This document shows, piece by piece, positions 849 through 64,000 of a stretch of 64,000 bases of DNA. The notes beneath the pieces are model-generated. The model did not search any database and was not told the DNA's origin. It saw only the letters and a list, made by a program, of their open reading frames with translations. The position numbers and the translations under genes were made by a program. Position 1 is the first letter of the stretch. Every line of letters begins with the position of its first letter. The DNA comes from Flaccisagitta enflata (Eukaryota), in assembly GCA_965153355.1 (NCBI GenBank), contig OZ231126.1:10106001-10170000 (forward strand), given 5' to 3'.

Positions 849-2579
849 AAAATAAGAAATTATTATCCCTATTGAATAATAATGATAATAATAATAATGG
901 GAAATTAAAAAAATTATCAAAAAATAATATTGAATTCCGATTGAATAGTATGGAAAATTGAAAAAAATGTAGAATTCCCATTGAATATCATGGTGAAGTT
1001 GACAAGTCTCCCCATCGTCCCCCTCGGAGCCGCTGTCCATAAAAGGAATACAAGTATTAAGCAACAAGGGGTCTTTGATGTGGGGGGGGGGGGTAGAGAT
1101 GGTGAGTGGGGCCGAATTACCTATTTTTATTATTGTTTGTTTAGGTATATGTAGTGGGGTGTAACTGCAGGAGTCCTTGAAGGCGAGGGCCTTCATACTC
1201 GGGTGAATTTCATGTTATAAAGTGAAGATATAACCTTAAAGTACTTATGCAAGTCCTGATTGGGTTACCTTGGGCCTAACATGACTGAAGTGTTTCTCAA
1301 CGGCTTCCGTGGAAAGAAAGTCAAGATAAATAGGGAAAAAACAGGGGAAAGAAAAATGAAGAAAAGGTCGCAAAAGCGTTACATGGTCAGCCGTACCCGA
1401 TGTCCCTTGTTAAGTTGATTTATTTAAGGATGTGATAGTGAGAGGAGCAGTGGCTCTGGAGGGGCCGATAACTAATGATTCCGCCAAAGATGATTTTTTT
1501 AGTTAAGGTCTGAGACTCTGAGTCTTTTTTTAGAGGTGGATAGGGAGGGGCAAAAAATAAACTGGTGAAATCGCCCTATAAGGAATTATAGATCATCAAC
1601 CCCTCCGGCCGCTGCCCAAAAATGGAAGAAAGAAGAACAGGAAAAAGAATGATTGTGAAAGTCGTCGATCTAGATCTACGAAGAACAAGTCCGTATTCAC
1701 TCACCCTCAGTCGCGGACGGGTGGGCAGGAGCGGGAAATAACAAATTTGACGGATCGACGGACGGACCGACGGACGGACCGACAGACAAGTTCAAGAGTC
1801 GCGTGTACGCGACAAAAAAAGGGGATAGAGATATAAAGAGAGAATGAGAAAGCAAATAGAATGGAGATTGAAAGAAGAATAACGACAAAGCAACAAAAAC
1901 GTGATACTAAAAGTATCGAAAATGTATGAATTACAGTAGCTCACCATACAAAACGGTTCGATTTTGTCGGCCTACATTTTATGATGGAGTGGTCGGATCA
2001 TTTCTAATTGGGTGATGCAATCGTAAGCGTAATCTCCCATCTTTGAACGGATAAATCCCCAATCATTTAACTATTGTTTGAGTGATTGTGATAATAAATC
2101 ATTCATAATTTTATCCTCACTCTTTCCCCGCAGCTCCAAAAGGAACCACATAAACAGCCTTTCAAAGGATAACGTCTAATTGAATATTAAACATAAAATA
2201 CCATTTTCAACAATCTTCAACCAAAACTTACAGCTGTCTTGGCATTACTTCGGGTCGCGAGAAGTGAACTTTCTTTCATCTTTTTTATGTCCGGGGGCGC
2301 GCGATTGAAATTGAATTATCGCGCAATTCCGCGCACACAGTGGTTGCATTGGTACATTCTTCGTGTCCTAGACTTTCAGCAACTTTCAGCCTTTGACAAT
2401 ACAATTTAACTCCTCGTAGCCGCATCTCCTCCGTCGCCGCGGGCCTCTCTCTCTCTCGAGCGAGGAGGAGGTTTAGCCACAACCTCTTTGGACGATTAAG
2501 ACTTGAAAAGTAACAGAATTTCCGCCAACTTCCAGATTATATAGACTATATTTAAATAAAACTTTAACTTTAAATAAAA

Positions 2580-4731
2580 ATGGCGGACGAAGGCGCTGAT
2601 ACAAACGTCGAGATTTGGAAGATCAAGAAACTGATTAAACGTCTTCAAGATGCTCGGGGCAACGGCACGTCGATGATCTCGCTCATCATTCCGCCCAAAG
2701 ATCAGATCGCCCGCGTGGGCAAGATGCTTGCCGACGAGTTCGGCACCGCCTCCAACATCAAATCCCGCGTCAACAGACTCTCCGTGTTGTCCGCCATCAC
2801 GTCCGTACAACAACGACTCAAGTTGTACAACAAAGTGCCGCCCAACGGGCTCGTCATCTACTGCGGCACCATCGTTACCGACGACGGCAAAGAGAAGAAG
2901 GTCAACATCGATTTCGAACCTTTTAAACCCATCAACACGTCGCTTTACCTTTGTGATAACAAGTTTCACACTGAAGCGCTCTCCGAGCTGCTCGCCGACG
3001 ACAACAAGTTCGGCTTTATCGTCATGGACGGCAACGGCGCTCTCTTCGGCACGCTGCAAGGCAACACCCGCGACATCCTTCACAAGTTCACCGTCGACTT
3101 GCCAAAGAAGCACGGCCGAGGCGGTCAATCCGCGCTGCGTTTCGCCCGTCTTCGTATGGAGAAGCGCCACAATTACGTCCGCAAAGTGGCCGAGGAGGCG
3201 ACGCGACTGTTCATCACCAACGACAAAGCCAACGTCACCGGATTGGTGCTGGCCGGGTCGGCCGACTTCAAGACCGAGTTGTCGCAGTCCGACATGTTCG
3301 ACGGGAGACTTCAATGCAAGATCCTCAAACTCGTCGACGTCAGCTACGGAGGAGAAAACGGATTCAACCAGGTCGGTGTAAGATGTGTTGTTTTGGATTT
3401 TTACCTTCAAAATGCGTACCTCTCTGTGTACATGTGTGTCATTCCTTTGCTTTTTGGTGTTGTGTCTTCACTCCCTTTCGCCATGTATTTTCTTTCTCCT
3501 TGAAATGAATTAATCTCAGAGCTCTGCTTTTAATTGTGCCAACAAAATCAAAAGTCACTTATATCTGTAAATCAAAAGCTTTCATTACACAGAACTAAAT
3601 TTGAGCTAGTGCTGGGGCCCATTTTAAATTCAAATTCAAATACTCCAGTCAAAAAAGACGATTCGTCTGTAGGTCTGGAGATACAATAGTACATGATAAT
3701 ATATGATAATCTACATTCTAAGAAAAATTCCGTCGCACAGAGTTAATGGTTCACCACTCCTAACAGTTCATCCACATTCCATCACTTGCGTTGTCCCGTT
3801 TCGCCACTCTTATTGTTCCATTTCACATTGAGCTTAGTGGTTTAAATGGTCAATGAAACTGTTTTTCTAAAACCCTTGGAAATGTGTTTTTGGATGTACG
3901 TTTCTTACTGTATTTTCTTTCTCTGTATATGTCAATGTCTGTATTGTCAGTTTCTCAGTTCGTTTTCCTCTCTACACCATCGCTTTCCACAGTATTCACA
4001 AATGTCACTTTCCTTCTCTAGTCACTGTCTCGCTAAGTTGCTTCTCTTACTCTCATCTCTCTAGTTGACTCTACCATTCATTTCTCTCTCTATCACACAA
4101 ACGTCGCTGAACTCTCTCCTAATCTTCTTTTTCCTCAATCTGCCCCCTCCACTTTCCTTCTGCACACGCGCACTCACTCACACACCTCTTTCCCCCCCCG
4201 CTCTTACAGGCGATTGAGTTGGCTTCCGAGTGCTTAGCCAACGTGAAATTCATCCAAGAAAAGAAGTTGATCGGAAAATATTTCGACGAGATCTCTCAAG
4301 ACACGGGCAAATTCTGCTTCGGCGTCGACGACACGCTCAAAGCGCTCGAGATGGGCGCTGTGGAGATCCTCATCGTGTGGGAGAACTTGGAGATCATGCG
4401 TTACGTGCTCAAGAACCACGGCAACGACGAGGAGAAGATCCTTCATCTCAATCAGGACCAAGAAAAGGATAAAACCCACTTTATCGACAAAGAAACCGGC
4501 GTCGAGTTGGAGTTGATCGAATCCATGCCGCTGCTGGAATGGTTCGCCAACAAGTACAAGAGCTTCGGCGCCGCCTTGGAGATTATCACCGACAAATCCC
4601 AAGAAGGTTCGCAGTTTTGTCGAGGATTCGGCGGCATCGGCGGCATCTTGAGATACAGAGTCGACTTCCAAACCCTCGAACTGGCCGCCGAATTGGACGA
4701 CTTCGACCTCAGCGACGACGACGACTATTAA
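2580..4731 (+). CDS. ETF1: Eukaryotic peptide chain release factor 1 (two coding exons, 437 aa)
   Basis: Exons 2580-3371 and 4210-4731 with a phase-0 GT-AG intron 3372-4209 (cag|gtcggt...ttacag|gcg), joining ...[15 protein letters not shown].... Motifs GTS, TASNIKS, YLCDNKF, GGQ and the C-terminal [11 protein letters not shown] are present; stop TAA. Confidence 0.98.
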
Positions 4732-6602: not shown

Positions 6603-7400
6603 TTAAACAACATTGTCCAAAGATTCTGAGTCACGCTCAAACAGGAGGGCAGCGTTGCCTCTTTGAAGCTCTATTGAGAGTCGCTGGAAGAATTGTTTGA
6701 TAGCGATAGCGTTTGTAAGGCCCCATCGTCGAGATCCTTTGGTTGCGATCTTCTTGAGGAAATCGATGGCGTCTTTATCCCAGCCTCCGAACGTTTCGAC
6801 GACGAGAGGTTGGAAGAAGATACCCTCCGCGCGACAATTGTCGAAGTGAGTGCGAATTTTGGTGGCTTTCCTGGACTCAATTGCAGCCGCAGGCGTATCG
6901 GCCGCGCGATGAAGTAGCGCCTCCTGCGTTGGAGACACCACACTGACATCAAAAGCAATTTTCCTGCTGTCGAGCCACTTGGGGATGAAAATGTCGGCAG
7001 GACGTGATTGTCGGCCAGGGACCAAGGATGGCATTTCGTCAACGGGATGGAGGATTGCGCGTTGGGCTTCTTGGAAGATCTTCTTGCAAATGTTGTCGTG
7101 TCTTCCAATCCTGATGCCGTGATCGTCGGAGCAATGCATAGCGTGATCACCATATTTGTCTTGGGATTGATGGCATGATGGTGATTCGGAGTCCTTTTCT
7201 TGCATGAGGGTAAGGCCAAGTCGATAGCCCATCGCCGCCCCAAACGAACGAGAGTTCAGATTAAGGCCGAGAGACGGAGAGGGGATGACATCTACCCAAT
7301 CACCAGCGTGTGGGAGCGCAAGAGAATGAAGACGAGCTCTATTTCGATCGTCGGAGGACGCCAGAAGACTGCTGTAGCAGTGGCTGTCTATTACTATGCG
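6603..7400 (-). mobile_element. 5'-truncated non-LTR retrotransposon fragment with restriction-like endonuclease (CRE-like)
   Basis: Open frame with RARLHSLALPHAGDW..PSPSLGL, a Zn-knuckle-like C..HAMHC, RHD, RPADIF..AFDVSV and K..PLVVETFGGW..RLS..LQRGNA, typical of CRE-clade C-termini. RT core absent. A duplicated tctattactatgcg lies at the 5' junction. Confidence 0.85.
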
Positions 7401-7495
7401 TCTATTACTATGCGTTTTCTGATTCAAACGCTTTCGAACCATGTGGACCATCAGACCCATGCGCGCGACGGCGACGGACGGACGGATATATAGAG

Positions 7496-7976
7496 CACAG
7501 CGCAATCTGTAGTACAAAAAAGTGACATTAATGCCCGGGGCAAAAGCCCCAATATCCCCGGTAAAAAAAAGTTAGTTTGAATATGCCCGGTTCTATGCCC
7601 CGTTAAAAGTTAGTGAAAAAAATGATTCAGGGATTAAACGGGGACTTAACAGGGCATATGCCCCATTTAGTTTAGTTTTGTTTAATCAAAAATGTTTTGT
7701 CAAAGATCAGTAAACCCTTTTTTCAGTGGCTTTCTTCAGGTCGATTTCTATCGTGAACATTGTCAGGGACTAAATGGGGACTTAACGGGGCATATGCCCC
7801 ATTTAGTTTAGAAATGAAGAAAATAAGTTAGTCTAATTGGGGGATTCCCCGGGGAATTTCCCCAGGATCAAACTTTGACATGTTTAGACTATGCCCAGTT
7901 CACTTATGAATAATTGTAACGGGGAAATTCCCAGGGAATTCCCCGGGGCATTAATGTCACAACAAATTGCGCTGTG
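7496..7976. mobile_element. Non-autonomous DNA transposon, Transib/RAG-like (5-bp TSD, CAC termini)
   Basis: TAGAG at 7491-7495 and 7977-7981. Ends are CACAGCGCAATCTGT and its reverse complement ACAAATTGCGCTGTG; inner TIR block GTGACATTAATGCCC at both ends; duplicated internal ggggacttaac(a/g)gggcatatgccccatttagtttag. Confidence 0.85.
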
Positions 7977-8419
7977 TAGAGCTCCTCGTTGGTCTGCGAT
8001 TAAAAGGAGATGGACAAAATTTTGGTAGATTAAAGGTTTTTGATGTAGTTAAATGATAACACGTAATTGATAATTGCAAAAAAATTTAGTTGCGGACACG
8101 CAACTCTGAAAGAGGCTTTGTCCGTCCGTCCGTGGACACGAGTCGGCAAGTGCGAAAATGAGTGTTTTAGATAGTTTTTGTGTATGTGTTGGGGGGCATG
8201 GGGTATAGATGGGGGTTGGATGCCCCTGCCCACCCGTCCGCAACAATATTGTGACCCCGCGTCACTTGTTATACCAGTAAACCCTAAAACTTACCATGAC
8301 TGCTTTGTGGAGAAGAAGATTCTTTGACTGCGAGGAGAAAAAATCTGGAAGGGTAGTGGTTAATGCCGGAAAAGGGGGGGCCAATTTGACCAACCTCTTT
8401 ACACCTTCATCGCTACTGC

Positions 8420-13585: not shown

Positions 13586-16500
13586 GCTCGCTCGCTCGCT
13601 CGCTCGCTCGCTCTCTCGCTCTCTCGCGCGCTCTCTCTCACTCACTCACTCACTCACTCACTCACTCACTCACTCACTCACTCACTCACTCACTCACTCA
13701 CTCACTCACTCACTCCTCCCTCCCTAACAAATATGCCAATTAAACACGCAGCAATTCACGAAGCAACGAACATTAAACTACCACATGGACAATTCTCATC
13801 CCGACAAAGTAGACCCGGCGTCACTGACTCACATCTGCGATTTGTGCGGGAAAGTGTTTTCCAGCGGCGAGAGTCTCTGCATTCATCAAGTCGCCTCCCA
13901 TAAAAACAAAAAAGATGACAAATCTCCGTCGTCCAAGTCGTCGCCAGTGAAGAGGAACAAGTGCGGAGGCATCAAAACAGAAGATGGAGGAGGAGAAGAA
14001 GAAGAGACGAATGGGGAATCCGTCTGTTGCCCGATTTGCGGAAGACAATTCGCCAACAAGTCTTATTTGAAGGTAAGAGGGGCTGCTCAAAAGAGGGGAT
14101 GGAATTGGGTTGATAGTTTTGGTCAGTTATGGTGACTAAAACGCTACATTGTAACCGCAGGAGTCTAGGTTCTGTATACATGAGTGAAACCAATCATACA
14201 TTGTCCTTGACAAAAATGAAAAGATTCTCTAAATGAAGGTAGCAGGAGCGTTAACCATTGAATTGGGTTTAAACCAGCCAGGTTTATGCAAAACCGAGTC
14301 GATTGTTAGCATAGGATTGTAAGATCAGCCAAGGAATGGCCAAGAACTGCTTTTTTGGCCGCAGGAGGGAGAGGAAGTCTGCCAATGCGAGGGTTCGTCC
14401 GCCCCTTTCGCGGAAGGGATTTCGCCGCCTAAAAATAAACGACGAGGTCAACAGAAAAGAGCGTCTTATTCCGTAGAGAAGAAAGCTGAAGTCATCTTGG
14501 AAGCCTACAAGTCCGGCCTGTCGCAAGGCAAGGTTAGTCATTAGGAGTTGCGTTGACGTGATTCAATTTTGGTCTGTTGTAGGTGGTTTGCGTTAAAATG
14601 TTATTTGAGATTCATTTGTGTCCGTTCTCAATCAAATGGAGCTTAGCGTCGTTGGTTTTCAAGTCTCTTCTTTTGCCTCTTTATTTTCTCGTCTAAAAAA
14701 AAACACCACCCGTTTCGTCCCTCTTTATCTGTGCCACTCCGCTCTTCCTCATCATCTTCCTCTCCTCTTCCTCCCTCTCTTCTTCCCTGTCTCCCTCTCA
14801 TCCTTAACCCTCCGCTTCCTTTCCTAACACCACCGCCCTTCCCTTTCCAGGTCGCTGCGAAGTTCAATATCAACCGTTCTATGGTGTCATGTTGGATGCG
14901 CGACAAGGACAAAATCATGGACGCCGCCAACAGTCGCACTTCCAAGAAATCAGCCCGCCTGCGTCCTTCGTTAAAACACGCTCGTCTCTTCGAGTCCTTA
15001 AATTCCCGTCTCCGTCAATGTCGCGGTCAAGGGATGTTGGTCGACTTCGGTTGGCTTTGGTCTCAAGCCCGGCAAATTTACGCTCAATCGACCGGCAATC
15101 CGGAAGCCACGCTCTGCGCCCACGTCGTCATTTTATTCCTCAAACGCAACGGAATCAGGCTGAGAGTGAAATACCCGCCCAAACGCCGGAAACTCGATCA
15201 TCGCGAGATCTTCGAGCCGAAATTGCGCCGCTGGCACGCCGATTTGAGGGAAAAGTTGATTCGCGTCGTCGGCAAACCGGGAGAAGGCGCTTACGACCGG
15301 AAGTGGGGTCGGTATCTGCCGACGCAAAGATATTGTCTGGATTCGTGCGTGCTGCCGATTTATCTATCCAGAAACCGAATCGTCGATCATTACAAAGCCG
15401 GAGAAGATGACGGGAGTAAAGGTGAGTGAACAGAGTGTACAGCATACAATTTCAGTTCAATTGTTCTAATAATTGTATTGAGAACAATTGTACTGAGGGT
15501 GAGGGAACTGGCAGGGACAACTTATGAAATCATTGCAGATGATAATTGATTAAAGATTTAAACGGTAGATAGAGACGGGAAGATATGAGAAGGGAGAAAG
15601 TTATGAAAGAACTGCAAGGGAAAAAAAGGCAAGAAAAGAAAGAAACGAAGAACGAGAAAAATTAAGGCAGATCGTAAGAAAGATGAATTGAAAAAAAAAG
15701 AAAGACGTACCTGGAATTCGCGATTAAAAGAACCATGGCAAAATTAAATCTATTCCACTTCCTACCATCACCCTCTTCTTTTTCCACTCCTTCCTCATCG
15801 CAGACAAGATCTGTCAAACGGATCCATCTCACGGTTTGGATCGTCGTCATTGCTCTTTGGTGATATGCCTGCGGGCCGGCGGCGAGCAACCGAGATTGGC
15901 GGTGATCTTCCGCGGCGGAAGAAGATTCGGCGCCGACGAGAAACAACTCTGGAATCCGCAAGTCGACGTCTACTTCCAAGAAAAGGCTTCTTTGGACACG
16001 GCCATCGCCTGCGAGTGGGTGAAACACACGCTCGGGAAGAATCTCGAACGCGGCGGCAGCCGAAGATTCGTCTTATTCTGTGGCAATTCCGCGGCGCTGC
16101 GCAGCGGGGAATTCCACGGTCAAATCTCGTCGAAAGGCGGCGTCGTTTGGCACGGACTCGACGACGCCGAGGAAGTGGCTACGGCGTTGTGGCAGCCCAT
16201 CGAAGCCGGTCCCGCGCAACTGCTCAAAGTCCTCGTCGGTCAGGCGCAAAGAAGTTGGCTGGAATCGAAAGAGAACGCGGCTTTATGGCACGGAGAAACC
16301 AAAGGGTTCACGGCCAAAGACCGAAGAGTGTTGATCACGCATTGGGCCGCGCAGGCGTGGAGCAAATTCATCACCGAAGAATACTCGCAATTCAATCTGA
16401 CGGCGTGGCAGAAAACCGGGTGCCTCATCACCGCCGACGGATCGGACGATCATCTCATCAAACCCGAAGACATCGGCGCCGATTACGTCGTCACGCCACC

Positions 16501-16999
16501 GGCGCCGTTTGAACCGTATCTGCAGGCGCCCATTTTGCAACGGTTTGAACAACATCCGGATGAGTCGTCGTCGGACGATATTCTCGTCGGCGGCGGCGGC
16601 CGCGGCGGTGGCGCCGAAACGCTGGAATCTTCGCAACGTCTTTTGTTATCCATGGGATCATCGATGCCATCGTTGGCCAATGGATTTAACCTGCCGCCTA
16701 TGGAACCCAACGCCGGCGCCGTGGTCGCCTCCGCCGTCAACGACGCCGCGGCGGCGGTGGCGGGTTGGAACCACGACGCCGCCGACGCCGACTCGCCGTT
16801 ACGCGACGACCCGGCCGATCGAGACTTTAACCACGAGCTGGTCGGTCGGCAGTTGAAAGTGTGGTACGAAGACGGATGGGCCACCGGCAGAATCAGTTAC
16901 TACAACATCAAATTCGCGATGATGAAAGTGGATTTCAACGAAGACGCCGACTTTGTAGCGCCTCACGATATCGACGGAATCGAAGTCGTCCTCTTGTGA
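10105..16999 (+). CDS. C2H2 zinc-finger protein fused to a pogo/CENP-B-type HTH, a degenerate DDE transposase and a Tudor-like C-terminus (POGZ-like architecture)
   Basis: Phase-consistent GT-AG exons 10105-10258, 10462-11594, 13752-14072, ~14365-14532, 14851-15421 and 15804-16999. Finger 5 is completed across the exon 2/3 junction (CLHCDK|QFTKQRTLNYHMDNSH). HTH: SYSVEKKAEVI..VAAKFNINRSMVSCW. Pogo-like motifs KWGRY, LAVIFRG, WQP and KTGCLITADGSDD. Exon 1 and the start of exon 4 are less certain. Confidence 0.85.
11780..12095. repeat. (TTTC/TTC)n pyrimidine microsatellite
   Basis: Directly visible, intronic. Confidence 0.95.
12204..12830. repeat. ~180-bp tandem repeat (about 3 units) preceded by an inverted partial unit
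   Basis: gggtagtaaaagtttatgaatttttt...aaaattcgaattaaatctgaagtctggttta recurs at ~12362, 12528 and 12693; 12204-12310 is a reverse-complement copy. Confidence 0.8.
12843..13720. repeat. Microsatellite cluster: (CA)n, poly-T, (TTTC)n, (CTCG)n, (CACT)n
   Basis: Directly visible tracts at ~12843-12950, 13155-13323 and 13395-13720. Confidence 0.95.
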
Positions 17000-19167: not shown

Positions 19168-22264
<3,097 letters not shown>

Positions 22265-22839
22265 TGAGCTGGATGAGGCAAGCAGGCATTTAGTTGGGCT
22301 TAGAGATCTCAAGCCAAAGTCACCTCTTCGTTAGCTAGGTCATGAGAGGGAATTGCAGACAGTGTTGTCGTGCGTCTCAACAAAAAAAAACTTCATTGAT
22401 CGCGATGAAAGCGTTGTTCTTTGTCAGCTATGTAATGATAATTTTGGTAACTTTCCTCCTACTTTCCCTTCTACATAGGGTAGTGGAGTCACCCACTTTT
22501 TTTTCTCGAGAAAATGAGGAAAATATTGGTGAATTTGAAAATTAAGGAAGACAGTGAGTCTAGTCTTTGATGAAAACAGAAATGTTTTAAAAAATCTACC
22601 TGGGCTGTTTAATTGGGTGACCTATTTTACACCATCACCCCCTTAATTTTAAATTCTTTGTCCAAGCAAACCGCACCGACTTTGCTAAGCTTTATCCGAA
22701 TTTAGTCTTTCTCTAAATTACATCAACTTTTTTGGAAAAGTTAGCTTTTGTAACGACGATCTACCAATTCCTTTTACTGCCATCTTCCCACAAAGGACGA
22801 GAAAAACAACTTGAAAGTGAAAAAAAAAACTACATCAGA

Positions 22840-25800
22840 ATGTCTAATTCCGAACTGACCGGAAGAAATCGCGCCTTAGATGAACGTGACAAGGCCGTAA
22901 ACTACTACGAGGATACTGGTTTACGTGGAAGCATTCAGGATCTGTTGAATATTACTTATTTCGAGGTGGGGGTCGATATTGTGACTTTAGTGGTAGCTCA
23001 CCTTGATCTGGGGGCTGAGAAAAACCCGAGATGAATCTAGCATGTTTCAATAGCTTAATTTCATGAAAACATGCTTCTAGGTGTAGTGAGATGAAATTTT
23101 TAACTGAAGCTCTAAAACCATCCTTTCTTCATGTAAAATTTCATCTCACTGGGGCAACTACAAGTGTGCCTTTCATGTAATTTAAGCTATTGAGATTCAT
23201 CTCGGGGTTTTCTCAGCCCCCAGATCAAGGTGTAGCTGTGGTGATGATATCGATGGAACAATTGGCACAGGCACAGGTACACTGGTACAGCCGTGCAGGA
23301 ACTGGTGTATTTGGTACTTAATTATGGCACGGTTTTGCTCAGAACCCGACAGACGTAAGTGGTTTCGTCGCCGGATTTTTCAACGCCATTTCCAAGGATA
23401 AACTTCTGGAAGGAGTCAGGTGTTTTTGTTGACGGCAATTGGCTTGGACGGACGGACGTGTCTCAAGAGTTTCTAGAGTGGGCCCCATGCCGTAAAACCA
23501 AATTGGCTAGGTACATAATTTCTTTTATTCAGTCTGGACTTCACGTCGCTTGACTGCGAGCTTCGAACCCGACCCAGCGTCCAGATACTTCACCTGAAGT
23601 TCAACGAACCTCGGTAAATTTTTCTTCGCAGCTTAAATCAAAGGACGCCGTTTTCACGCACTATAATGATGGATAGCTGCTTTCTCCCCCTCTTAAATGA
23701 CGATGTGTTGTTTCCCCCGTAACATTCAGCGTGGTGGCGTCCCTTCCTTGTTGGCTCACCTCAGAGCAATTGGATTTTGGGGATGCCTTCTCCGCAACCG
23801 CCATCTTTGGTGACAAATTGAAAGGCATTTGCTTTTGGGTATGTCTTTGCTTTTGGGTATGTCGAGTTAATGTCTGTCCGTATATACTAGTCCCCATAGT
23901 GTAATCACAACGCTATTGCTAGCCAATTGGTCTTCTGTGAAGGACTACGAGGATGTGGACGCGGCCATGATGGCAGTTGTGATGGATTTGCGAGAGAGAC
24001 ATGCTCAACTATCAACCTCCTCACCCGAAACTTCTCTCGAGAACCAAGGTTATTTTCACTTACACGAAATTCTCACGTTTGCTTATAACTTCTGAATGAC
24101 TGTAAAATGAACAAGCCCAATCGGGCAACGTTGTCCTGTGTCGATGTTGCAATGAAATTGTGCGGCAAGCACTTGCTATCTTGCTAATAAATATATCAAC
24201 ATCTGAAAAGAAGCATCAACTTTGGAAGAGTACTGCTCCTAAACGAATAAAGCTACAATTACCAGATTGGTCGCATTTTAAAGCATTAAAACAAACATCT
24301 AAAGTGAGACCAATCTGATAATTGTAGCTTTATTCGTTTTGGAGCAGTACTCTTTCAAAGTTGCTTCTTTTCAGATGTTGATATATTTATTAGCAAGATA
24401 GTAACGTAGTTCTGCTGGGACGCATCTGATAAGCGAAAAATTTTGTGATTGGCATTTGTATCGCTAAAACCTGATGGGCTTACAGACAGAAGGACAAGAA
24501 TTGTGAAAAGAGATGCGAGCACGAATCTTGATAATTGACAGGGTATGTTGGGGGGCGGGGGGGGGGGGAAATAGCAAGGCAATATCTGGCCTTAATGCCT
24601 CAAGGTTGCTGGTCAGAATGCTGTACAATTTGGAAAAAAAAATGACGGAATCAACCATGACTAATCATTAATGCGATGGATCACAGAAACTGTCAAGATT
24701 ACCATGGCCGCTATAAGTGAAGTGCCCGAAGACAAAGCAGATGTCACCGTCGTTTCGGCTAACGTTGATAAGCCGCCGTTGGATGAAGAAGCTTTCGATC
24801 GTCTGCTTGAGTTTCGAGCGTGCGTGTCTTTGGCAGTGGCGTCGGCCGGAGTGGCGTCGGCCGGAGCCGCTTGCGCCGAGGCTCGTCGTCATGGGCAATG
24901 TGAGTCACGTGGCAGCGACGCCGCCGGCTTGTATCGCTATCTTTGGCATTGTATGGAATCATGTAAAGCGAAACGGTTTCCAGGAGCTTCATTCATCGTA
25001 GACGAAGCTGGAAACGTCACCGATGGAGGAGAAGTCGGTTAGGGTTTTGGTCATGGTTTCTTTCTCGTGCTAGTTTTTGTTCCGTCTGAATCACTAATAA
25101 GAAGATCCTATTCTTTTCCTCTTTTATCATGTCTGTTTGACACTACGTCCATCTGTCTCTCCATGTTTGTCACACGTTTAGGAGAAGATCCATTGTTGGC
25201 CTCAATGGAAGGAGTTACTTCTGCCCTTGAAGCCCCCGTCGACATGCGATCCAAGGGCGATCTAAATAAAGAAAAATTGAATAAAGAAAAATTGAATAAA
25301 CTACCAACTGCGTCCTCGGAAAGAATTCAGACTTACGTCGACGAGACACTTTCACCCAAGTCTCGCCTAAAACCCATTTCTACCAAGAAATCTTCGGGAA
25401 ACGAAGCGAAATCTCTCAATCAGCCATCATCGTTGCCCGACACTTTAGTCGTAGAGAAAGAGGAGGAGGAGGAGGAGGAGGAGGATTCGCCGACACCTCA
25501 AACGATAGATTATGACGTCACGGCTTGGCCGCTCGTCCGTGACCGTCTCCCGCGGCCCGTCGTACCCCTCTTCTCATTCAGATCATCTTCGTCGTCGATG
25601 CCGCCGTATTCTCCTTATGGCCCCATCACTTACGTTGACACGGTCTTTGTCGTACCTACGACGAACATACTGCCGGAAGATTATGGCCGCATGATAAAGA
25701 CGACGATGCAGGTTCTTGACAGTCAGTGAACAAAATGGTATTTGTAGATATGTCAGCAGTTTGGCAAATCTCAAAACAGTGAGATCTTTCATTCTAGTAC

Positions 25801-27195
25801 ATTTCAACGCGTTGAGATTTCTCATTCTGGCATATTTCAACATGTTGAGATCTCTCATTCTGGCATATTTCAACATGTTGCGATTTCTTATTCAATTAGA
25901 TTTATCTCAGTAGAATGAGAGATTTCAACGTGTTAAATTGTGCCTGAATAAAAGATTTCAATATGTTAAAATATACTAAACTGCTGATATATCAACAAAT
26001 ATTGTAATGTCCATAGACTGTTGACGTCATTTTACATGTGAAACACTTTTATTTGGTTACTTGTTCATGTGGTTGAAATATTTTCATCCCTCCTCAACTG
26101 TACGTACAGGCCATCTTCAAACTGCTAATCCCGCCGGAAGGAGGAGCTGAAGGCGACCAGATGACAAATTCATCGAGAGCGAAAAAGGCCGAAGTGTCGT
26201 CCAAGAAGGGATCGAAAGGCAAAAGCCGGAATAACGAGAAAGATTACTACGCGGGTGACGACTGGTGGTCCGAAGATGAAACGGCCAACTTTGAGTTTGA
26301 TAGCGACGTAGACGTTCTCGATGGTAATTTGACGGGTCTGTCTAACATGATAAAGATCATGACTACGTCTGTCAGAGTGCCCTGAAAAGCCAAAATTGTA
26401 CTTCGCCTGGCAAAAATATTTTTCCTTTGCAAAAATGCTTTCAAATGAGCCATTGCACAACTTTCAAATCAATCGGGATCCATCTTTAGGGTAAGGTTGA
26501 AGATTACATTGAATCATCATTGGAATCTTTTTTTCTATTATGCAAATTTTGTCTCTCTCATACAGATCTATGGAAACTTCAAAGTCATCCTAAAGATGGT
26601 TCCTGATTGATTTGAAAATTGCGCGTTAGCTCATTTGAAAGCATTTTTGCAAAGGAAAAATATTCTTGCCAGGCGAAGTACAATTTTAGCTTTTCTGGGC
26701 ACTCTGACAGACGTAATCATGACGCTTAGTATAGGGGGTAAAAAACGGTTGTAACTTTAGTACGACGTAGGCAGAGGCAGTGGCAAACTGTTGTTGGTGA
26801 TCTTCTCGTCTCCGTTTCCCGGCGTCAGGTGAATGATAAATCTCCTTAGTCACTTAGGAAGGGGCACCGTTTGAGATTCGGTCAATGTCAATGACGATTC
26901 TCAATGAAGTTCAAACTGCTAAAGAAGACATCGTGACATGTCTATCAATGTCTTGTTCTTCAGCGAATTTCAATGCGAGAGCCAAAGCCGCGGCGAGGAA
27001 AAAGTTCATGGCCACTGCAAAGTCAAAAGGGAAACCGGCGGGGCCTCCGGTAGTCCACACGGAGTATGGCACCCTTGCATTCCCACAGGCCGATTCTTTA
27101 GGTGTGCAATTTTCTGTCATCTGTCGATCTCAAAACGTTTCTAGGGTCTTTCGCTCTCAGGTGGATACTGTGTTATCATCTCATACAGTAGTCAA
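22840..27195 (+). CDS. ENO4: Divergent enolase-4-like protein, truncated at the fold-back point
   Basis: Phase-consistent exons 22840-22965, 23343-23510 (needs a -1 T-run correction; the mirror copy has 4 T), 23533-23613, 23900-24048, 24687-25037, 25182-25711, 26110-26323, 26761-26828, 26858-27101 and 27161-~27195. The N-terminus KAVNYYEDTGLRGSIQDLLNITYFENPTDVSGFVAGFF resembles the ENO4 N-terminal docking-type motif. CVSLAVASAG..LYRYL and LPRPVVPLF resemble enolase motifs. Confidence 0.7.
22999..23232. mobile_element. Fold-back MITE in intron 1 of the ENO4-like gene
   Basis: caccttgatctgggggctgagaaaaacccgagatgaatct pairs with agattcatctcggggttttctcagcccccagatcaaggtg; inner arms are also complementary. 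Confidence 0.75.
24177..24401. repeat. ~225-bp near-perfect hairpin (probable fold-back MITE)
   Basis: ctatcttgctaataaatatatcaacatctgaaaagaagc pairs with gcttcttttcagatgttgatatatttattagcaagatag; no clear TSD. Confidence 0.8.
25780..25890. repeat. 33-bp tandem repeat (about 3 units)
   Basis: gagat(t/c)tctcattctggcatatttcaacatgtt repeated. Confidence 0.85.
26364..26715. mobile_element. hAT-like MITE with 8-bp TSD
   Basis: ATCATGAC at 26356-26363 and 26716-26723; ~85-bp TIRs starting tacgtctgtcagagtgccc. Confidence 0.85.
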
Positions 27196-30100
27196 CTGAC
27201 TTGCTGATTACTCCATAGATACCGTCTTGGAATCGTAGACCGTCGAGCCTCGGTGGTTGCAATCTCCGGACGCGTTACGGTGGTGACGAAATTTTGCCTA
27301 AAAGAGTCGGCGCTGGAATGCGGTGCCGTATTACCGAGCCCCGCCGTTTCCGACGCGACAACCGCTGTTTCCTATCGCCGCGGCTGGCTGGACATTGGTG
27401 ACATGTCACGATATAACAGCTAGCGGACTGAGCTTCGTGAGATGTCATTGACATTGACGAATCTCAAACTGACGCTTCTGAAATTGACTGAGGCTATCGT
27501 ACCTGACGCCGAGAGGCGGAGACAGCGATCACCAGCAACGGTTGCCACTGCCTCTGCGTCATGCTATTGCTTTAAACGTCATGATTACGTCTATCAGGGG
27601 AGTCTTAGAAAGCTAAGGGTAGCCTTCGCACAGCAGGAATATTTTTCTCGCTGCAAAATGCCAGTGACTAACATAATTTCAAATCAATCAGGAATATCTT
27701 TAGGATGACTTTGAAGACTCATCGTCTATGAAGAGAATAAACTATAATAAAAATAAATTCAATGTAAATTCAATGTATCTTCCCAGCCTTACCTAAAGAT
27801 GGATCTCGATAATTGAAAGTAAAACCGCAATAGCTCATTTGAAGCATTTTGCGAAACTATTTTTTGCCAGTAATATAATTTAACTCGCGCTCTGACGGAG
27901 CATAATGATCTTATCATGTTAGACGAACCATCAAATTACCATCAGGCGTCTACGTCATATCAACCAAAAATTGGCCGTTTCACCAATCGTCACCCGCGTA
28001 ATAATGCTCGTTATTCCGGCACGATGCTAGACGGCTGCGCTTTCAGCGCTTTCGCCGATAATTTGTCATCTGGCTCGCCTTCCTTCCCGCCAACGTGGCC
28101 TGCTTATACAGTGAGGAGGATAATGGCCGCATGGCCTGAATGACAAATGAGATGTTTCACATGTAAAATGACGTCAGCAATCTATGGACATTGCAATATT
28201 TGTTGATATCAGCAGTTTAGTATATTTAACATATTGAAATCTGTATTCAGGCACAATTTAACTACTTACGTTGAAACCATTCTGCTGAGACAAATCTAAT
28301 TGAATAAGAAAACAGCATGTTGAGTATATGCAGGCGAAGATCTCTTTATGTGCCGGTCATCTCAACGTGATTAATCTTGCCCAAGAATGAGTCTCACTGT
28401 TGGACGCCGGCTGCTGGCATATCTACAAATACAAATCGCGCTGTCAGAACGCATCGTCTTTATCATGCGGCCGTATCTTCCGGCAGCGTGTTGGAGTAAG
28501 CCAGATGCGGTAAAGACCATGTCAGCACGTGATGGGGCCAGCAGAAGAATGCCGGCGGCTATCGAAGCGGCAGTGTCTGGGCGAGAGGAAGTACGACAGG
28601 CCGCAGAAAGGCGTTAGGCGCTGTCGCGTCATCGTTTGAAGCGTCGGCGATGCCTCATCTCCATCTCTTCTCTACGACTAAAGTGTCGAGGCAACAACTG
28701 GTGAAGACACCAGCCGTTTCCCGAAGACTCTTGTAGAAAATGAGTTTAGGCGGGCAGGTGAAATGTCGTCGACATGAAGTCTGAGTGTCCGAACAGTGTG
28801 TATTCAGTTTTCTTTATATAGATCGCCCTTAGTGCATGTCGGCAGGGGCAGAGGCGAAATACTCCTTCATTGAGCCAACAATGGATCTTCTCTGACGTGT
28901 GACATATGGAGAGACCATAAATGAAAGATGATAAGAAGGAAAGAATAGATCAGATGGCACAAAAACGAAAAACCATGACCAAAACCTAACCATTCTCCTC
29001 CATCATTGACGTTCCGCTTCGTCTACGACGAATGGCTCTGAAACCGTTCCGCCCCATGCAATGCCGGAGTGAAACTGTACAAAGTGCGCTCGAAACAGTC
29101 AGCTTCTTCATCAACGGCAGCCTCGGTCAGCCAGGCTGACGATGATCTTCGGGCGCTTCGCGCCAGCAGCGCGTAATCTTGACGGTTTCATGATCCATCA
29201 CGTGGCGTCATAATTTGATTCACGTCATTTTCAAATTGTACGGCATTCTGACCGCGGCAGCGAAACGTGCAGACCCAGATGACGCCTTCCCCCCCCCCCC
29301 GCCCCCCAACATACCCTGTCAATTATCAAGATTCGTGCTCGCATCTCTTTTCACAATTCTTGTCCTTCTGTCTGTAAGCCCATCAGGTTTTAGCGATACA
29401 AATGCCAATCACAAAATTTTTCGCTTATCAGATGCGTCCCAGCAGAACTACGTTACTATCTTGCTAATAAATATATCAACATCTGAAAAGAAGCAACTTT
29501 GAAAGAGTACTGCTCCAAAACGAATAAAGCTACAATTATCAGATTGGTCTCACTTTAGATGTTTGTTTTAATGCTTTAAAATGCGACCAATCTGGTAATT
29601 GTAGCTTTATTCGTTTAGGAGCAGTACTCTTCCAAAGTTGATGCTTCTTTTCAGATGTTGATATATTTATTAGCAAGATAGCAAGTGCTTGCCGCACAAT
29701 TTCATTGCAACATCGACACAGGACAACGTTGCCCGATTGGGCTTGTTCATTTTACAGTCATTCAGGTGTTATAAGCAAACGTGAGAATTTCGTGTAAGTG
29801 AAAATAACCTTGGTTCTCGAGAGAAGTTTCGGGTAAGGAGATTGATAGTTGAGCATGTCTCTCTCGCAAATCCATCACAACTGCCATCATGGCCGCGTCC
29901 ACATCCTCGTAGTCCTTCACAGAAGACCAATTGGCTAGCAATAGCGTTGTGATTACACTATGGGGACTAGTATATACGGACAGACATTAACTCGACATAC
30001 CCAAAAGCAAATGCCTTTCAATTTGTCACCAAAGATGGCAGATGCGGAAAAAGCATCCCCAAAATCCAATTGCTCCGAGGTGAGCCAACAAGGAAGGGAC

Positions 30101-33100
30101 GCCACCACGCTGAATGTCACGTAAGAGGGGGAGAAAGCAGCTATCCATCATTATAGTGCGTGAAAACGGCGTGTAAAGTCCTTTGATTTAAGCTGCGAAG
30201 AAAAATTTACCGAGGTTCGTTGAACTTCAGGTGAAGTATCTGGACGCTGGGTCGGGTTCGAAGCTCGCAGTCAAGCGACGTGAAGTCCAGACTGAATAAA
30301 AGAAATTATGTACCTAGCCAATTTCAAAGCACTGTAGCCATTAGAAACTCCAGAGACATGTCCGTCAGTCCAAGCCAATTGCCAACTACAAAACACCTGA
30401 CTCCTTCCATCAGTTTATCCTTGGAAATGGCGTTGAAAAATCCGGCGACGAAACCACTTACGTCCGTCGGGTTCTGGGCAAAACCGTGCCATAATTAAGT
30501 ACCAAATACACCAGTTCCTGCACGGCTGTACCAGTGTACCTGTGCCTGTGCCAATTGTTCCATCGATATCATCACCACAGCTACACCTTGATCTGGGGGC
30601 TGAGAAAACCCCGAGATGAATCTCAATAGCTTAAATTACATGAGGCATACTTCTAGTTGCCCCAGTGGGATGAAATTTTACATGAAGAAGCGGTGGATTG
30701 CGAAACTCGGTAACCCTGATCACAATATCGGCCACCTCAAAACTCAGCGAATCTGAATGCTCCACGTATATTCAATATCCTCGTAGTGAACACGGCCTTG
30801 TCGTTCATCAAAGCGCGACTCTTGGTCAGTTCAGTGGAACATTCTGATGTAGTTTTTCGCTTTCAAGTTGTTTCTCGTCGCTGTGGAAGATGGCGTAAAA
30901 GGAGATTGTGAATTTACAAGCTCTTTTCCCAAAAAGTGATATGAGCAGAGAAGACTAAATTCGGATAAGCACAGCTACTGAACAGAAGCCCACAGGGGTG
31001 ATATTAAAATAACGAATAAGCCCAGTGTTTAAGGCCTATTTGCAAAACTGTACTGTGCTCACTGGGCCTCAGAATTCACCAATATTTTCCTCATTTCTTT
31101 CGAGAAAAAAAGTGAACGACTCCTGCTGCGTGAACAGAGAGAAACGGAAGAAGTCTCAAAATTATCCTATGACAAGAACAACGCTTTCATCGCGATCGTG
31201 ATTTTTTTAACAGCGACGCGACAACTGTCTGCAATTCCTCTCATATTTAGCTTTAGAACGAAGAAGTGACTTTGGCTTGAGATCTAAACTTAACCCAATG
31301 CCTGCCTCATCAACTGCGTGCCACTGCGCTTCAATTGCAATCCTTACCTGTGCAAATAGTGGAATGGCGAGTTTCTTCAGTCGTGGAAGGATCACCGAGT
31401 GAAAGAGTGTGAGGACGCACGTACTCGCACAAGTCTGAAGTTCAGGCGTCAAAAAAAATCGAATCACCGAACGGCAAAAGGCTCGGTGACCACAAAATGA
31501 TGTGGTGGAGTGTTGTCGACAGGTGGCCTGCAATCGCATGACGGAAGCCGTCAGTCTGAAGCCATTATCAAACGGGCATTACGAACGAAACCATTATCCC
31601 AGCAGCAGGCGCGCTGCAGTGAGCAAAACGGCGATTAAAAAATCTGAAAATAATGGGTGCGCGACTGGAGTCCAACGGCGTTGTCCGCGGCGTTGTCAAC
31701 GGCGGCGTTGTCCAACGGCGTTGTGCAACGGCGTTGTCAACGGCGTTGTCAACGGCAATCAACGGCGTTATCCCAACGGCGTTGTCGCGGCGTTGTCAAC
31801 GGCGTTGTCAACGGCGTTGTCAACGTCAACGGCGTTGTCAACGGCGTCAACGGCGTTGGCTAACGGCGTTGTCCAACGGCGTTGTCCAACGGCGTTGTCC
31901 AACGGCGTTGTCCAACGGCGTTGTCCAACGCCGGAATGATATTCCGTCGCGGACAAAAAGGCAAACCATGCATTTGGGATAGAGCAGTAATGCAGAATTC
32001 GCCTGTAAAATTAAAATAAGACTGAAAAAAATTAACTACTCGTTGTCCAACAACCAAAACCATTACAAAATTCCCAGCGGCAAAAAATAAATAAATAAAT
32101 AAAACAGAATAAAACAAATCGAAACGTGCCTTGAAGAACTGACATATTCTTGGAACGCCGGCAAAGTGGCAAGAGACGTCTTTGGACTTGTGATGGGGTA
32201 ATGAATTCATATGATCAAAGAATTGAAAATTATGATGAGTATAATTAACGATTGTGATGATTTTTTTCCATTGAGATTTCGCCTCCATATAGGCATGTGT
32301 ATAGTTCCACCGGAGGGGGGGGGGGGAAGAATTAATCAGAGGGTTTGCAGATGGGGAAAAAAATCAGCGGGGAAAATTTTTTTTTTGACAGTACCAAATC
32401 ATAAAAACTGACTTGTAAAACATTAACACTATTTAAACTTTAAAAACAATGTTTTATTGCTTGATGGGGAAGAAAATGAGATTTTGAAATGCAACGCGTC
32501 TTGTTGCGGGGAACAAAATCAAAGGTGGCGGTGAGGGGGGGGAGAAAGAATTAATCAAAGGTAATGGAATTGAACTACATACACCCCTGTCTCCAAAATT
32601 GTCTCGAACTAGGACACCGCTAAGAGAGAGGGATTCAGCACAACAGTTTGGATTTACGGTCCGGGATACTGTTACTAAAGAAAACCTACGTGAATGGTCC
32701 CCGAGGCAGCATCGGCTGCAAACATCTGAAACTGGGGAATATAGGGTGTGAACATGACAACGTTCAGTGGCAGGCCCATGTCGACAATCCACTCATTAAG
32801 TTTATGAATATGACTTTCCCGAAAATTCAAGTTGAAAACTCGGGCGTGTATGAAGTTGAGTATTTCCACACAATTTCACACAGTTATGACTTAAATTTGA
32901 ATTGAATTTGACAACAGTATAATCATTCTCCATGGGGTAGATTCTCCATCCGGCTGGGGAAGGAAATCAAAGACCAGGGGGGCAGGAAAGCAAAGACCAG
33001 GGGGCAGGAAAGCAAAGACCAGGGGGGCAGGAAAGCAAAGTCCAGGGGGAAAGAAATATAAGTCGCTCAACTTTATACACTCCTGTTAAAAAACTTTAAC

Positions 33101-38316: not shown

Positions 38317-41300
38317 TTACGAAAAGAAATCCTGGTTATGTTGTTGAACTTGCTGTTGCTGTTGCTGCTGCGCCTGCGCGGCAGCGACCACGGCGGTCTG
38401 TCCCCCGGGACCAACACTCGTCATTATGCCCATCGGATTTCCGCCTCTCATTGGCCCCATCATCATGGGCCCCGTAGGATGACTACCCCCGGGACCCATA
38501 GGGTTTCCTTGTGTCATAGGTCCCCGATTCATCATCATCTGTCCATGCATCATTTGAGGACCCGTTTGTCGCATCCATTGCTGGGGTGGTCCCCCCACGT
38601 TTGGGTCTCCTCCGCCTTGCTGCATCTGTTGTTGCTGTTGCGGATTGGCCATAAGTAGGTTGCGTAATTGCACCGGTTGACCCGTGGTGTGCATTTGCGG
38701 TTGTTGAGGTATCGACATGATTCGGATAGATTGATTCTGTGGTCCTCCCATCATGTTAACCATAGGACCCTGACCACGGATCATGGTGGGGCCCTGCTGT
38801 TGAAGTTGGTGGGTGGGCTGCTGTTGTTGTTGCATCGCATGTATTTGCGGCTGTTGTAACTGCTGCATGGGCAAAGTGACGCCAGTGTTGATGGGGTTGT
38901 TGGGGCCACCGACCCATGTATTGTTGGCCGACGAAGTTTGCATTCCAGTCATCCCAGGACCGCCCATGCCACCCGGCCCTGCTGGGCCTCCTGGTCCTCC
39001 TGGTCCCCCAAGACCAGCTGGACCTCCGGGAGCCCCCGAACCTCCTGGACCAGATGGAGCGCCCCCTGTATTTCCGTCAATGGCTTCCCGACTACGTTGT
39101 TGTTTTTCTTTGTGATCTGTTGAGAGATATGCGAGATTAAAGACCGTTACCGTGTGTTCATACTTAAGTAAAATACATTCAACTCATTCATCATCTACGG
39201 GCGGGTTCGTTCTAAGCAGGAATCCATGGTTTCGTAAGGAAGATAGTGGCTATTCGGGGCAGAGGAAACTCGGGACTAATTCACAGATTCTTCATGCCTG
39301 GCTGAATAGCAATTGTCACTGGTCAGTTTTATAGTGCTGGATGAGGGCTAGTTGGGTGACAAAAATTGAGCAACACATCCTAACCAGGAGGAAGCAATGA
39401 GCGTTTTTCCCGAATTTCCAGTGTTCCAAAAAGCCCCACTTGTCTCTGGTTGTCTCCTATTCAGTAAAACCCAGCCGCATGGCCCCGCCAAGCAGGACCT
39501 AGTACACGCTTTTCATTTTATACATGGATTTCTTAAATGAGCCTCAGCGTTCTTATTTTAAACCCTATTTTGAAGTTCAAGTGTTCTTGACATGTTTTTA
39601 TTTTTTCATTTGAATAGTTCTTCTAAAATTATGCAATTATAATATGTAATTTATTATTCTAAGAAACTTTTGGAAAGATTAAGGTTTTTAGAACAATAAA
39701 TAGTTTTTTCAAAAATTCTCATTACAATATTGATTTTTAAAGATATTCTGTTTTATTTCTTCAAATCAATTTAAAAAACAATATTCTTATCTTTAAATCT
39801 GAGGCTCAGCATGTTCCTAAGATGGTCTTATTTTTTTGCCAAATCTAAGGCTGATGCTCTTATAAACAGTGTTCTTATAAAAAGAAAAGCGTGTATAGGA
39901 TCTAAAACGTTTTATTTTTGTCACTAAGCATTTGCTAGATATCCATCTTCAGCTTCAAGACAAAAACATCACTGGCAAATGGAAGAGCTTGGGCCTTAAG
40001 AAATGGTAACCTGTTATGATTTGATGCATCCCGTTGACGAATCCCTTCTGATCATCGGGGATGAAGCCGATGAACCCTCGCGTCTTCTTGTTGTACAACA
40101 ACATCAACACTTTGATGTCGCATTGAGTGTTGTTGCCGAAATGGACGCAGCCGGAGAAGCCCGTTTCCATGACGTTGTGAAGGGATTCGAGGGAGGATTG
40201 ATCGTTTTTCGCGAATTGAAACTCCACGGTTCGAGATTTCGAAATGAGTGGGCGGAGCGGCGAGAGCAACTGTGGGTAGTATAAAGTACAATCAAGAAAT
40301 AAAAAATATTTTCAAACCATTTTTAGATGCGTCCTCGCATCTCTATAAGAGGCTCTGTCCGTATCAAGATCCGTGATAGGAAATTTTCAGAAGGGAAATT
40401 TTAGGGTTTTCTCTTCATTTCTCTTCATATCTCTTATATGGATCTCTTCATATCTCTTATATGGATCGCGTGGGGGTGGTAGGAATCAGTTTATATTTTT
40501 CTCTTTGTCTCAATCTCTTTATATCTTCATATCATTATATCTTATATCTTTATATCTTAATAATTTGTATATAAAAAGATATAAAATATAAAAGAATTAT
40601 AAAATATCTAAGGAGGACGCATCTATTGGACATCTCTTGGCCTTGTTTTGTACTCATGTGCAGGCTGGCAGAAACAGGGGCACACTTGGCACATTGTGCC
40701 TCGGAACTATTTTTCTCAAGGGGTTCTCAGCAGATATGGATAATTGCACTTCATTTAAATTGTTCTCACTCAAATCATCATTTTCCTCTGTCAGAATTGC
40801 CAAATTTGGATAGAAATTCAGACCGTAGCTTCCAGACTACATCTACCACCATTACATGAAACGTCATGAAATTTTAAAGTCAATAGGATGTACATGCTTT
40901 TCAAATAAGTAGATCAGGCTAATTTGTATATGAAATGACATCCAATGAAAGGCGGTGGGGGGGGGGAGAGAAGAGAGAAAATCAATGAGGTAAATGGCAT
41001 TCAAACACAAATTCGCTTTCATAAAAATGACAAATTTACCAGAATATTGAGATCCTGGTCAGACAAATAACCAACAAGGCCGAATGCAAGGCCGTCAGTA
41101 GCGGAAGCGAAATGGCCAAAAGGCAAAATGCATTTTCTAAATTTTCGACGATATTAATTTGAACGGACAAAACTCTTATGCGGTGCGTGTCCGCAACGTC
41201 TTCAGTCGAATCAACGACTTCCGGGACTAGATGGAAGGTGACAGGAACTGAATACGCAGTATTTTCAGAATAATGGTAAAGAACTTTAAAGCACAAATCT

Positions 41301-44421: not shown

Positions 44422-44800
44422 CACAGCAATCTGTAGTGACATTAATGCCCCGGGAATTCCCTGCAATTTCCCGTTATTCATATAAGTGAACCAGGCATAA
44501 TCTAAAAATGTCAGATGATCGAGCGATCTATTTCTAAACTAGGGCATATGCCCGTGCGTCCCCATTTGGTTTGTTCTTTCCGCGATAGAAAATGCGACAC
44601 AAGCCGCTGAAAAAGGGTTTACTGCAATTTTGGCGAACATTTTTGATTAAACAAAACTAAACTAAATCGGGCATATGCCCTGTTAAGTCTCGTTTAATCT
44701 TATAGTCATTTTTCCTTTAACTTTAGAGATAAACGGGCGTATTCAAATGCTTTTGCGGCGTTCGGTGCATTAATGTCGCTGTGCCACAGTTGCCTTTGTG
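44422..44800. mobile_element. Second, error-rich and inverted copy of the Transib-like MITE
   Basis: cacagcaatctgtagtgacattaatgccccgggaattcc ... gggcatatgccctgttaagtc ... gcattaatgtc..tttgtg; flanks aaaat and aaatg. Confidence 0.75.
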
Positions 44801-62280: not shown

Positions 62281-62309
62281 GGTGTTGCCGGGATTCCGGT
62301 CACAATGAC

Positions 62310-63581: not shown

Positions 63582-64000
63582 CTTGACTGCGTCCGTTTCT
63601 TGCTCGATCCAGAGTCACAATTTTCACTTTATTTTCGAGTCACAGTGTTCACTTTATTTTCGAGTCACAATGTTCACTTTATTGCCGGTCATGTAATTTT
63701 CTGAAGTTTGTGTCACTGTTCCACGGTAATGCGTGTGAGTTAATTGGCCACTTTTATATAACATAGGCACATTAATCTGAAAAGAAATCGCTTGACCAAG
63801 CGCGGCCTCCAGCCCTCGTCGACAACAATCGGTGACGCCTGGAGCTCGCGCTTAAACAAGCGAAGTAGTAGAAATTAGCTTTATCTTTTTTTCTGATTTT
63901 TAATGCAATAAATAAATTAATATTTTGTTAATATAATGTTAAAGCAAGCAGATACAAAAAACATGTCAGTGAGCACAACTGCTTTTCTGTGAGGGTGTTT

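Follow-up and report, generated by a model that had tools for sequence, protein, structure and literature searches.

What is the 481-bp segment at positions 7496–7976 of the 64,000-nt stretch of DNA analysed here (hereafter the window), what kind of enzyme might have placed it there, and does the unequal construction of its two ends reflect a rule by which such an enzyme pairs them? A first-pass annotation had read the segment as a MITE of Transib or RAG-like type with RSS-like ends offset by one helical turn, and had proposed that the genome has or had a transposase that may follow an asymmetric pairing rule. These propositions differ in strength, and they are taken up below in the order in which the sequence and the public sequencing runs bear on them.

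Anatomy of the element

The segment has the outline of a non-autonomous MITE. This copy (copy 1, plus strand) holds no confined ORF of more than 54 aa and must therefore move in trans; an Rfam search returned 0 matches. The perfect 5-bp TSD recorded by the first-pass annotation, TAGAG, is present at 7491–7495 and 7977–7981; in public sequence data, the left-flank contig of run X1 (record 2) stops at 7490, and contigs of runs X1, X2 and X3 stop exactly at 7977. Both tips read CACAGCG, one mismatch from the V(D)J heptamer as had been claimed (6/7 to CACAGTG, and 5/7 to CACAATG). At the left, the heptamer-like tip (7496–7502) and 10 conserved nt form a 17-nt terminal module at 7496–7512 on the plus strand; at the right, the module of the short end lies at 7961–7976 on the minus strand, with its heptamer-like CACAGCG at 7970–7976. 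The two ends agree in 15 of the 17 outermost nt.

Internal to these modules lies a 15-nt block, GTGACATTAATGCCC, which occupies 7522–7536 on the plus strand and recurs as an exact match at 7946–7960 on the minus strand. In public-run contigs, position 7537 is C in ~98% of depth, so that the left block is identical to the right one for 1 further base. The distance from tip to GTGACATTAATGCCC is 26 nt at the left and 16 nt at the right, a difference of exactly 10, and on this point too the first reading of the locus was accurate. Alignment of both ends places the additional 10 nt of the long end at 7513–7522 on the plus strand, with an ambiguity of ~2 nt, and an A-rich 9-mer inside them, ACAAAAAAG (7514–7522, plus strand), gives the left end the layout of a CACAGCG heptamer, 11 nt and ACAAAAAAG.

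A second feature of the element is its density of GGGCAT/ATGCCC motifs, which occur 9 times in the 481 bp where the rest of the window would predict 0.11, many of them sitting in GGGG-N-CCCC palindromes. The inner block at each end holds the outermost copy (ATGCCC in the left block), and the 10-nt offset thus displaces the first of a series of likely, if only predicted, protein-binding sites. The CAC-initiated 17-nt terminal module would serve as a recognition site for a transposase acting on the element, as probably would the GGGCAT/ATGCCC motifs along its length.

Could such a structure arise by chance? The whole window was scanned without bias for 16-nt TIRs (first 7 nt exact, at most 2 mismatches) combined with an exact 5-bp TSD, the tip sequence being left free. 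The scan returned 5 pairs: 2 sit within a longer palindrome around 55.4 kb, where flank matches of 3 bp occur one base further out, 1 is a low-complexity pair at 58.2 kb, and the two that remain, the 7496–7976 element and a 234-bp element at 22999–23232, both start with CAC. Forty Markov-1 simulated windows yielded a mean of 0.075 TIR/TSD pairs. The structure of the element exceeds chance. That the locus holds no mobile element, and owes its appearance to an inverted repeat arisen by chance or to faulty assembly, is so improbable as to be negligible, given that a CAC pair with a 5-bp TSD appeared in 0 of the 40 simulated windows, that a second copy is present in the window, and that sequencing depth jumps at the exact tips in 4 of 4 runs from 3 studies. 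Two further candidates were rejected. The pair at 39970–42911, with CACTG ends, 2 TIR mismatches and flanks that match over 5 bp, extends across a MED25 exon and has no transposase-like ORF, and a terminal-motif match with 2 mismatches at 28431–28445, considered as an element end, has no partner and was taken as a chance match.

The 234-bp element is an unrelated, near-palindromic MITE of the form CAC...GTG, with CACCTTG tips. Its TSD, TAGCT, lies at 22994–22998 and 23233–23237, and this target begins with TAG, as does TAGAG. Its ends match over 39 nt with 1 mismatch, after which the left arm has 9 extra nt. It represents another family that bears the insertion signature of copy 1.

A high-copy family in public sequencing runs

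A search of public runs found the stretch in two runs of one organism and in many marine metagenomes. Contigs of four runs from 3 studies (X1, X2, X3 and X6) were aligned to 7200–8300 at 80% likeness, with depth bins that by chance start at 7496 and end at 7976; summed contig depth is no copy number, and it is used here only to call the family highly repeated, while parts without coverage carry no weight as evidence. In the four runs, summed depth rises several hundred-fold exactly at 7496 and 7976. For X1, the figures are 766 over 7459–7495, 151,492 over 7496–7532, 86,493 over 7940–7976 and 662 over 7977–8013; for X3, the same bins give 10.2, 1,371, 353 and 7.39. Across the whole element, summed depth ranges from 60,852 to 172,019 in X1, against flank contigs at 154.5 and 200.3, and from 329 to 2,612 in X3, against 7.39 on the flanks. 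The element is a member of a high-copy MITE family bounded exactly by its CAC/GTG tips, and the MITE label it was first given is upheld by these edges in contig depth.

Several contigs represent other copies. X2 record 9 (~91% alike) covers 7496–7679 with 17 differing letters and 2 gap letters, the latter corresponding to an AG insertion behind 7573 in the indel table; X6 record 29 reaches 7976 with 13 differing letters and 0 gaps, and X1 record 5 reaches 7978 with 28 differing letters and 0 gaps. At least 14 of the 40 substitutions listed (there are 79 more) fall in the element, and among those listed none lies in 7496–7536 or 7940–7976. Indels at a share of at least 5% comprise 8 rows across the four runs, 2 of them inside the element (7573 and 7924) and 0 in the terminal 75 nt of either end. 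Scans for further copies in public metagenome contigs and viral contigs gave 0 matches. The sole match in a genome contig, inside a bacterial coding sequence and with a 5-nt spacer, was rejected; by our own estimate ~0.5 chance matches were expected.

The same contigs speak to whether the locus also exists without the element. Contig record coordinates follow each record's own direction, as is shown by X1 record 1, a minus-strand record whose letters 1–144 lie on 7200–7343 and of which 43 more letters run past the start of the stretch. Read in this way, X2 record 12 (310 letters) places its first 138 letters on 8114..7977 and has 172 further letters left of 7977, none of them on the element, while X3 record 21 (305 letters) shares those first 138 letters and continues for another 167 left of 7977, again off the element. 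From the other side, X1 record 2 (203 letters) follows 7318–7490 without a difference and then carries exactly 30 letters beyond 7490 that do not match 7491–7520. The depth figure is equal on both flanks, at 123.5 in X2 and 7.39 in X3. An assembly graph of 31-letter words, which we take to be the word length in use, leaves 30 letters where an empty allele merges with the filled one at 7977. It is likely that these contigs of X1, X2 and X3 join 7490 to 7977 with a single TAGAG and represent an empty allele; among the 15 of 311 joint rows listed, none is 7490>7977. Such a joint would amount to an insertion polymorphism and hence to recent movement, and an empty site with a single TAGAG would support a 5-bp duplication. 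A search for a paralogous empty site within the window found none. Together, these data suggest that the family has apparently been mobile in recent times.

End asymmetry as a family trait

Had the long end of copy 1 gained its 10 additional nt by a private insertion, as the first-pass annotation had allowed, the asymmetry would say little about the family. A second, old and diverged copy (copy 2) lies in the window at 44422–44800 on the minus strand, in the opposite orientation to copy 1; it is 379 bp long, ~70% alike and, by global alignment, homologous with copy 1 end to end, and it carries the GGGCAT/ATGCCC motif 5 times. Copy 2 has 23 nt at its long end and 15 nt at its short end before the GACATTAATG core, with the same polarity as copy 1. 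Its offset is 8, not 10, its A-run being 5 nt shorter and its short end lacking 2 nt. A row in which the 10 nt are left out is absent among all 8 indel rows at a share of at least 5% in the four runs. Private insertion is thereby contradicted by X2 record 9, by the indel rows and by the polarity of copy 2, and the long/short asymmetry is a trait of the family. The comparison of TSD length among copies that had been suggested alongside has a mixed outcome: the duplication is perfect over 5 bp at copy 1, but the flanks of copy 2, AAAAT and AAATG, match perfectly over 4 bp only (AAAT) and in 3/5 positions at 5 bp.

By default, the 10-nt offset is read as inherited from a founder copy. That an asymmetric pairing rule stands behind it is something we purely infer, family-wide asymmetry being equally expected from a founder. 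What, then, do the contents of the two ends add? The earlier reading had likened the left end to a 12-RSS. Its layout holds, and ACAAAAAAG matches the RSS nonamer ACAAAAACC in 7/9 positions, at the left end only and with a spacer of 11. The likeness is weak, a match of at least 7/9 having a chance of 0.0026 per position in the window and of ~0.03 over 12 end/spacer trials; at the right end no nonamer-like 9-mer was found at spacers of 22–24 (best 2/9), and in copy 2 the A-rich 9-mer is not kept and scores 5/9. A different 9-mer offers a more economical description. The AT-rich ACATTAATG is shared by both ends and begins 22 nt past the heptamer at the left and 12 nt past it at the right, a start that was chosen by the analyst within a block of ~20 nt, and of these figures the difference of 10 alone is robust. 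Identical at the two ends and placed at 22/12, ACATTAATG has a 12/23-like geometry, more economical than a left end of 12-type; a 12/23-type pair has spacings ~11 bp apart, and the offset here is 10.

This geometry invites the stronger proposal that the element is of Transib/RAGL type with a functional offset of 10 nt, or one helical turn, its transposase pairing a long with a short end in a 12/23-like manner by reading ACATTAATG. We regard this as unlikely. The offset is exactly 10 in copy 1 and copy 2 keeps the polarity, but in copy 2 it is 8 rather than 10. The terminal 75 nt of either end are free of indels at a share of at least 5% in four runs, which speaks for the proposal; a MITE family, however, inherits the indels of its founder, and asymmetry across the family therefore does not show selection. 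The shared 9-mer at spacers 22 and 12 fits the proposal, although the 12/22 reading hinges on where the 9-mer is taken to start within its ~20-nt block, and the other CAC/5-bp-TSD family of the window has ends that match gap-free over 39 nt. Published work falls on both sides. Assays show that ProtoRAG favours its asymmetric 27/31 pair (PMC8289069), and several Transib families as well as PflRAGL-A have 12/23-like or 10-bp asymmetric ends, but invertebrate RAGL enzymes have been argued to be relatively insensitive to asymmetry and to rely on the terminal 15–17 bp (PMC7204232).

Superfamily assignment

Our best reading, held with a modest preference, is that of a high-copy, non-autonomous cut-and-paste transposon of Transib/RAG-like type whose offset is a founder trait; when the version with functional asymmetry is included, an assignment to the Transib/RAGL type in all is probable. 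It is favoured by the 5-bp TSD, by the CAC tips with their 6/7 heptamer, by the 17-nt terminal module and by the second, unrelated CAC/5-bp-TSD family in the same window. If the assignment holds, the element would have inserted at TAGAG via a 5-bp staggered cut, and a Transib- or RAG-like transposase (a RAG1-type DDE enzyme) encoded elsewhere would most probably move it in trans, presumably by nick-hairpin chemistry. Of the 41 ORFs in the window that reach 150 aa or more, 30 were scanned and gave no RAG1-like Pfam domain; the remaining 11 overlap these in alternative reading frames.

A high density of subterminal motif repeats fits hAT and CACTA elements better than Transib as described, and subterminal short repeats are common in hAT. 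A perfect 5-bp TSD is seen at just one locus of the family (n = 1), and the targets TAGAG and TAGCT are each 2/5 G+C, unlike the GC-rich preference reported for Transib (n = 2, a weak sample). In the literature, a 5-bp TSD and a CAC heptamer define Transib and RAGL ends, which agrees with the earlier statement that these features typify such transposons; the 5-bp TSD is no longer unique to them, since hAT5 elements also make 5-bp TSDs (cited in PMC12730594). A 2026 preprint shows that even Transib elements differ among themselves in tip sequence and in the length of the TSD.

These points bear on a less probable alternative, that of a MITE from another superfamily, CMC-related or hAT5, whose 5-bp TSD and CAC tips merely resemble Transib. 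hAT5 makes 5-bp TSDs, and the lineages of the CACTA-Mirage-Chapaev-Transib (CMCT) clade have CA..TG ends in common and TSDs of 2–5 bp. For CMC in the narrower sense (CACTA/Mirage/Chapaev), TSDs of 2–4 bp are reported, against 5 bp in copy 1 and in the second family here. The third terminal base, C in our element, is reported to be G throughout hAT (PMC1131882, Figure S7 legend). The many short motif repeats, subterminal as well as internal, the perfect match of the copy 2 flanks over 4 bp and the targets TAGAG and TAGCT, neither of them GC-rich, would suit such an origin, but two independent families of the window combine CAC tips with exact 5-bp TSDs. We retain the Transib/RAG-like assignment as the preferred one.

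Other features of the window

At 8085–8270, summed depth in X1 reaches ~1.5e7, roughly 100x that of the MITE, with many joints that go back 186, loose ends rich in T and a neighbouring (GGAC)n run, and this segment looks like a satellite-like or SINE-like hyper-abundant repeat. To the left of copy 1, 7200–7347 stands at ~10x single-copy depth, and the MITE may adjoin an older repeat. Contigs of the metagenome run X3 over 7200–7392 and over 7394–7490 each continue into unlike sequence at about 7392–7394, a point at which the structure of wild relatives seems to depart from that of the window. A 322-aa open frame that has no Pfam match (6603–7571, minus strand) extends into the left end of the element.

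Further candidate mobile sequences lie downstream. A 423-aa open frame at 15728–16999 (plus strand) gives a weak match to DDE_1, the pogo/Tigger-type transposase domain (E 0.0018, below the Pfam cut-off). A large inverted duplication relates 21500–24700 to 29175–31933, with arms of up to 725 nt at 99% and ~1.6 kb at 91%, and its right arm carries at 30584–30689 just the right half of the 234-bp MITE, with the right flank shared; the duplication is thus younger than the insertion, and half of the MITE was subsequently deleted from one arm. The 352-bp element at 26364–26715, with a perfect 16-nt TIR (156-nt arms at 88%) and the 8-bp TSD ATCATGAC, looks like a MITE of an 8-bp-TSD superfamily. At 59380–63614 (minus strand) lies a non-LTR retrotransposon whose uninterrupted, intact-looking 982-aa ORF has an endonuclease and a reverse-transcriptase domain; a 434-aa ORF precedes it.

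The window also carries eRF1 exons at 2574–3503 and 4123–4731, MED25 exons on the minus strand and a C2H2 zinc-finger ORF. The eRF1 product is 99–100% identical to unnamed database proteins and ~90% identical to those of animals of many phyla; in a tree it falls within none of the sampled clades (arthropods, molluscs, tunicates, ambulacrarians and cnidarians), and no position it could take has support.

Comparison with known systems

Among the closest parallels are Transib5, Transib2_AG and TransibN1-N3_AG (PMC1131882), which share with the element the 5-bp TSD and CAC heptamer-like tips, include non-autonomous members, and have, as here, a second conserved block that lies deeper at one end than at the other by about one helical turn. 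They differ in having the heptamer CACAATG where the element has CACAGCG, and their hosts are flies or mosquitoes, whereas the host of the element is a marine metazoan. Unlike theirs, the displaced block of the element is no A-rich nonamer common to both ends, its targets are not GC-rich, and it is full of GGGCAT/ATGCCC repeats.

PflRAGL-A from Ptychodera flava (10.1101/2023.08.20.553239) has ends built as heptamer, TR2, spacer and nonamer, with a 10-bp length asymmetry. It resembles the element in its heptamer, in an adjoining conserved region of 9–10 bp, in a spacer with that 10-bp asymmetry and in an AT-rich inner element, as well as in 5-bp TSDs and signs of ongoing mobility. It is autonomous and encodes RAG1L and RAG2L, whereas our element is a 481-bp non-coding derivative, and the two are likened by layout, not by TIR sequence. 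Amphioxus ProtoRAG (PMC8289069) likewise has a CAC tip, bipartite conserved elements and spacers of unequal length. It too is autonomous; its spacers of 27 and 31 differ by 4 bp, against 10 in the element, and its pair preference is experimental.

The TIRs of protostome RAGL elements (PMC7204232) share with the element the CAC tip, the 5-bp TSD and a terminal module of ~15–17 bp. Non-autonomous derivatives have been reported there, and the terminal module is functional (PMC7204232). Against the RAGL consensus CACTWMCAAACKTYKBB (PMC7204232), the element matches in 9/17 positions by eye, with CAA at positions 8–10 where RAGL has AAA. The hAT5 group is comparable in its 5-bp TSD (PMC12730594) and differs in the third terminal base, G in hAT and C in the element. 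Comparison with the Transib and RAGL families was by description of their ends only, and identity with a named family is possible.

The idea of asymmetric ends is itself well established for these transposons. Kapitonov and Jurka (2005) described several Transib families with RSS12-like 5' and RSS23-like 3' ends and wrote that "even the 12/23 rule can be derived" from Transib (PMC1131882); a later hypothesis by Yakovenko et al. is built on the 12/23-like Transib ends (PMC8355894), and the preference of ProtoRAG for the asymmetric 27/31 pair was tested in 2019 (Tao et al., PMC8289069). The element, well preserved and ordinary in kind, is one more case and introduces no new principle.

Implications

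If its partner enzyme is RAG1-like, the family would add to these systems a substrate that is present in many copies and probably active, and whose ends differ cleanly by one turn. The many diverged copies would offer a population-level test of the constraint on spacing, and with its long and short ends cloned, asymmetric pairing could be tested directly. The fullest version, in which an abundant and apparently still mobile family serves an active Transib/RAG-like transposase of a marine planktonic animal as its natural substrate, the enzyme pairing each 12-like end with a 22-like one, is a doubtful one, slightly more so than functional pairing by itself. Should 12-like/22-like pairing nevertheless prove true, the family would provide hundreds of natural 'signal pairs' with which to study the origin of the 12/23 rule outside vertebrates.
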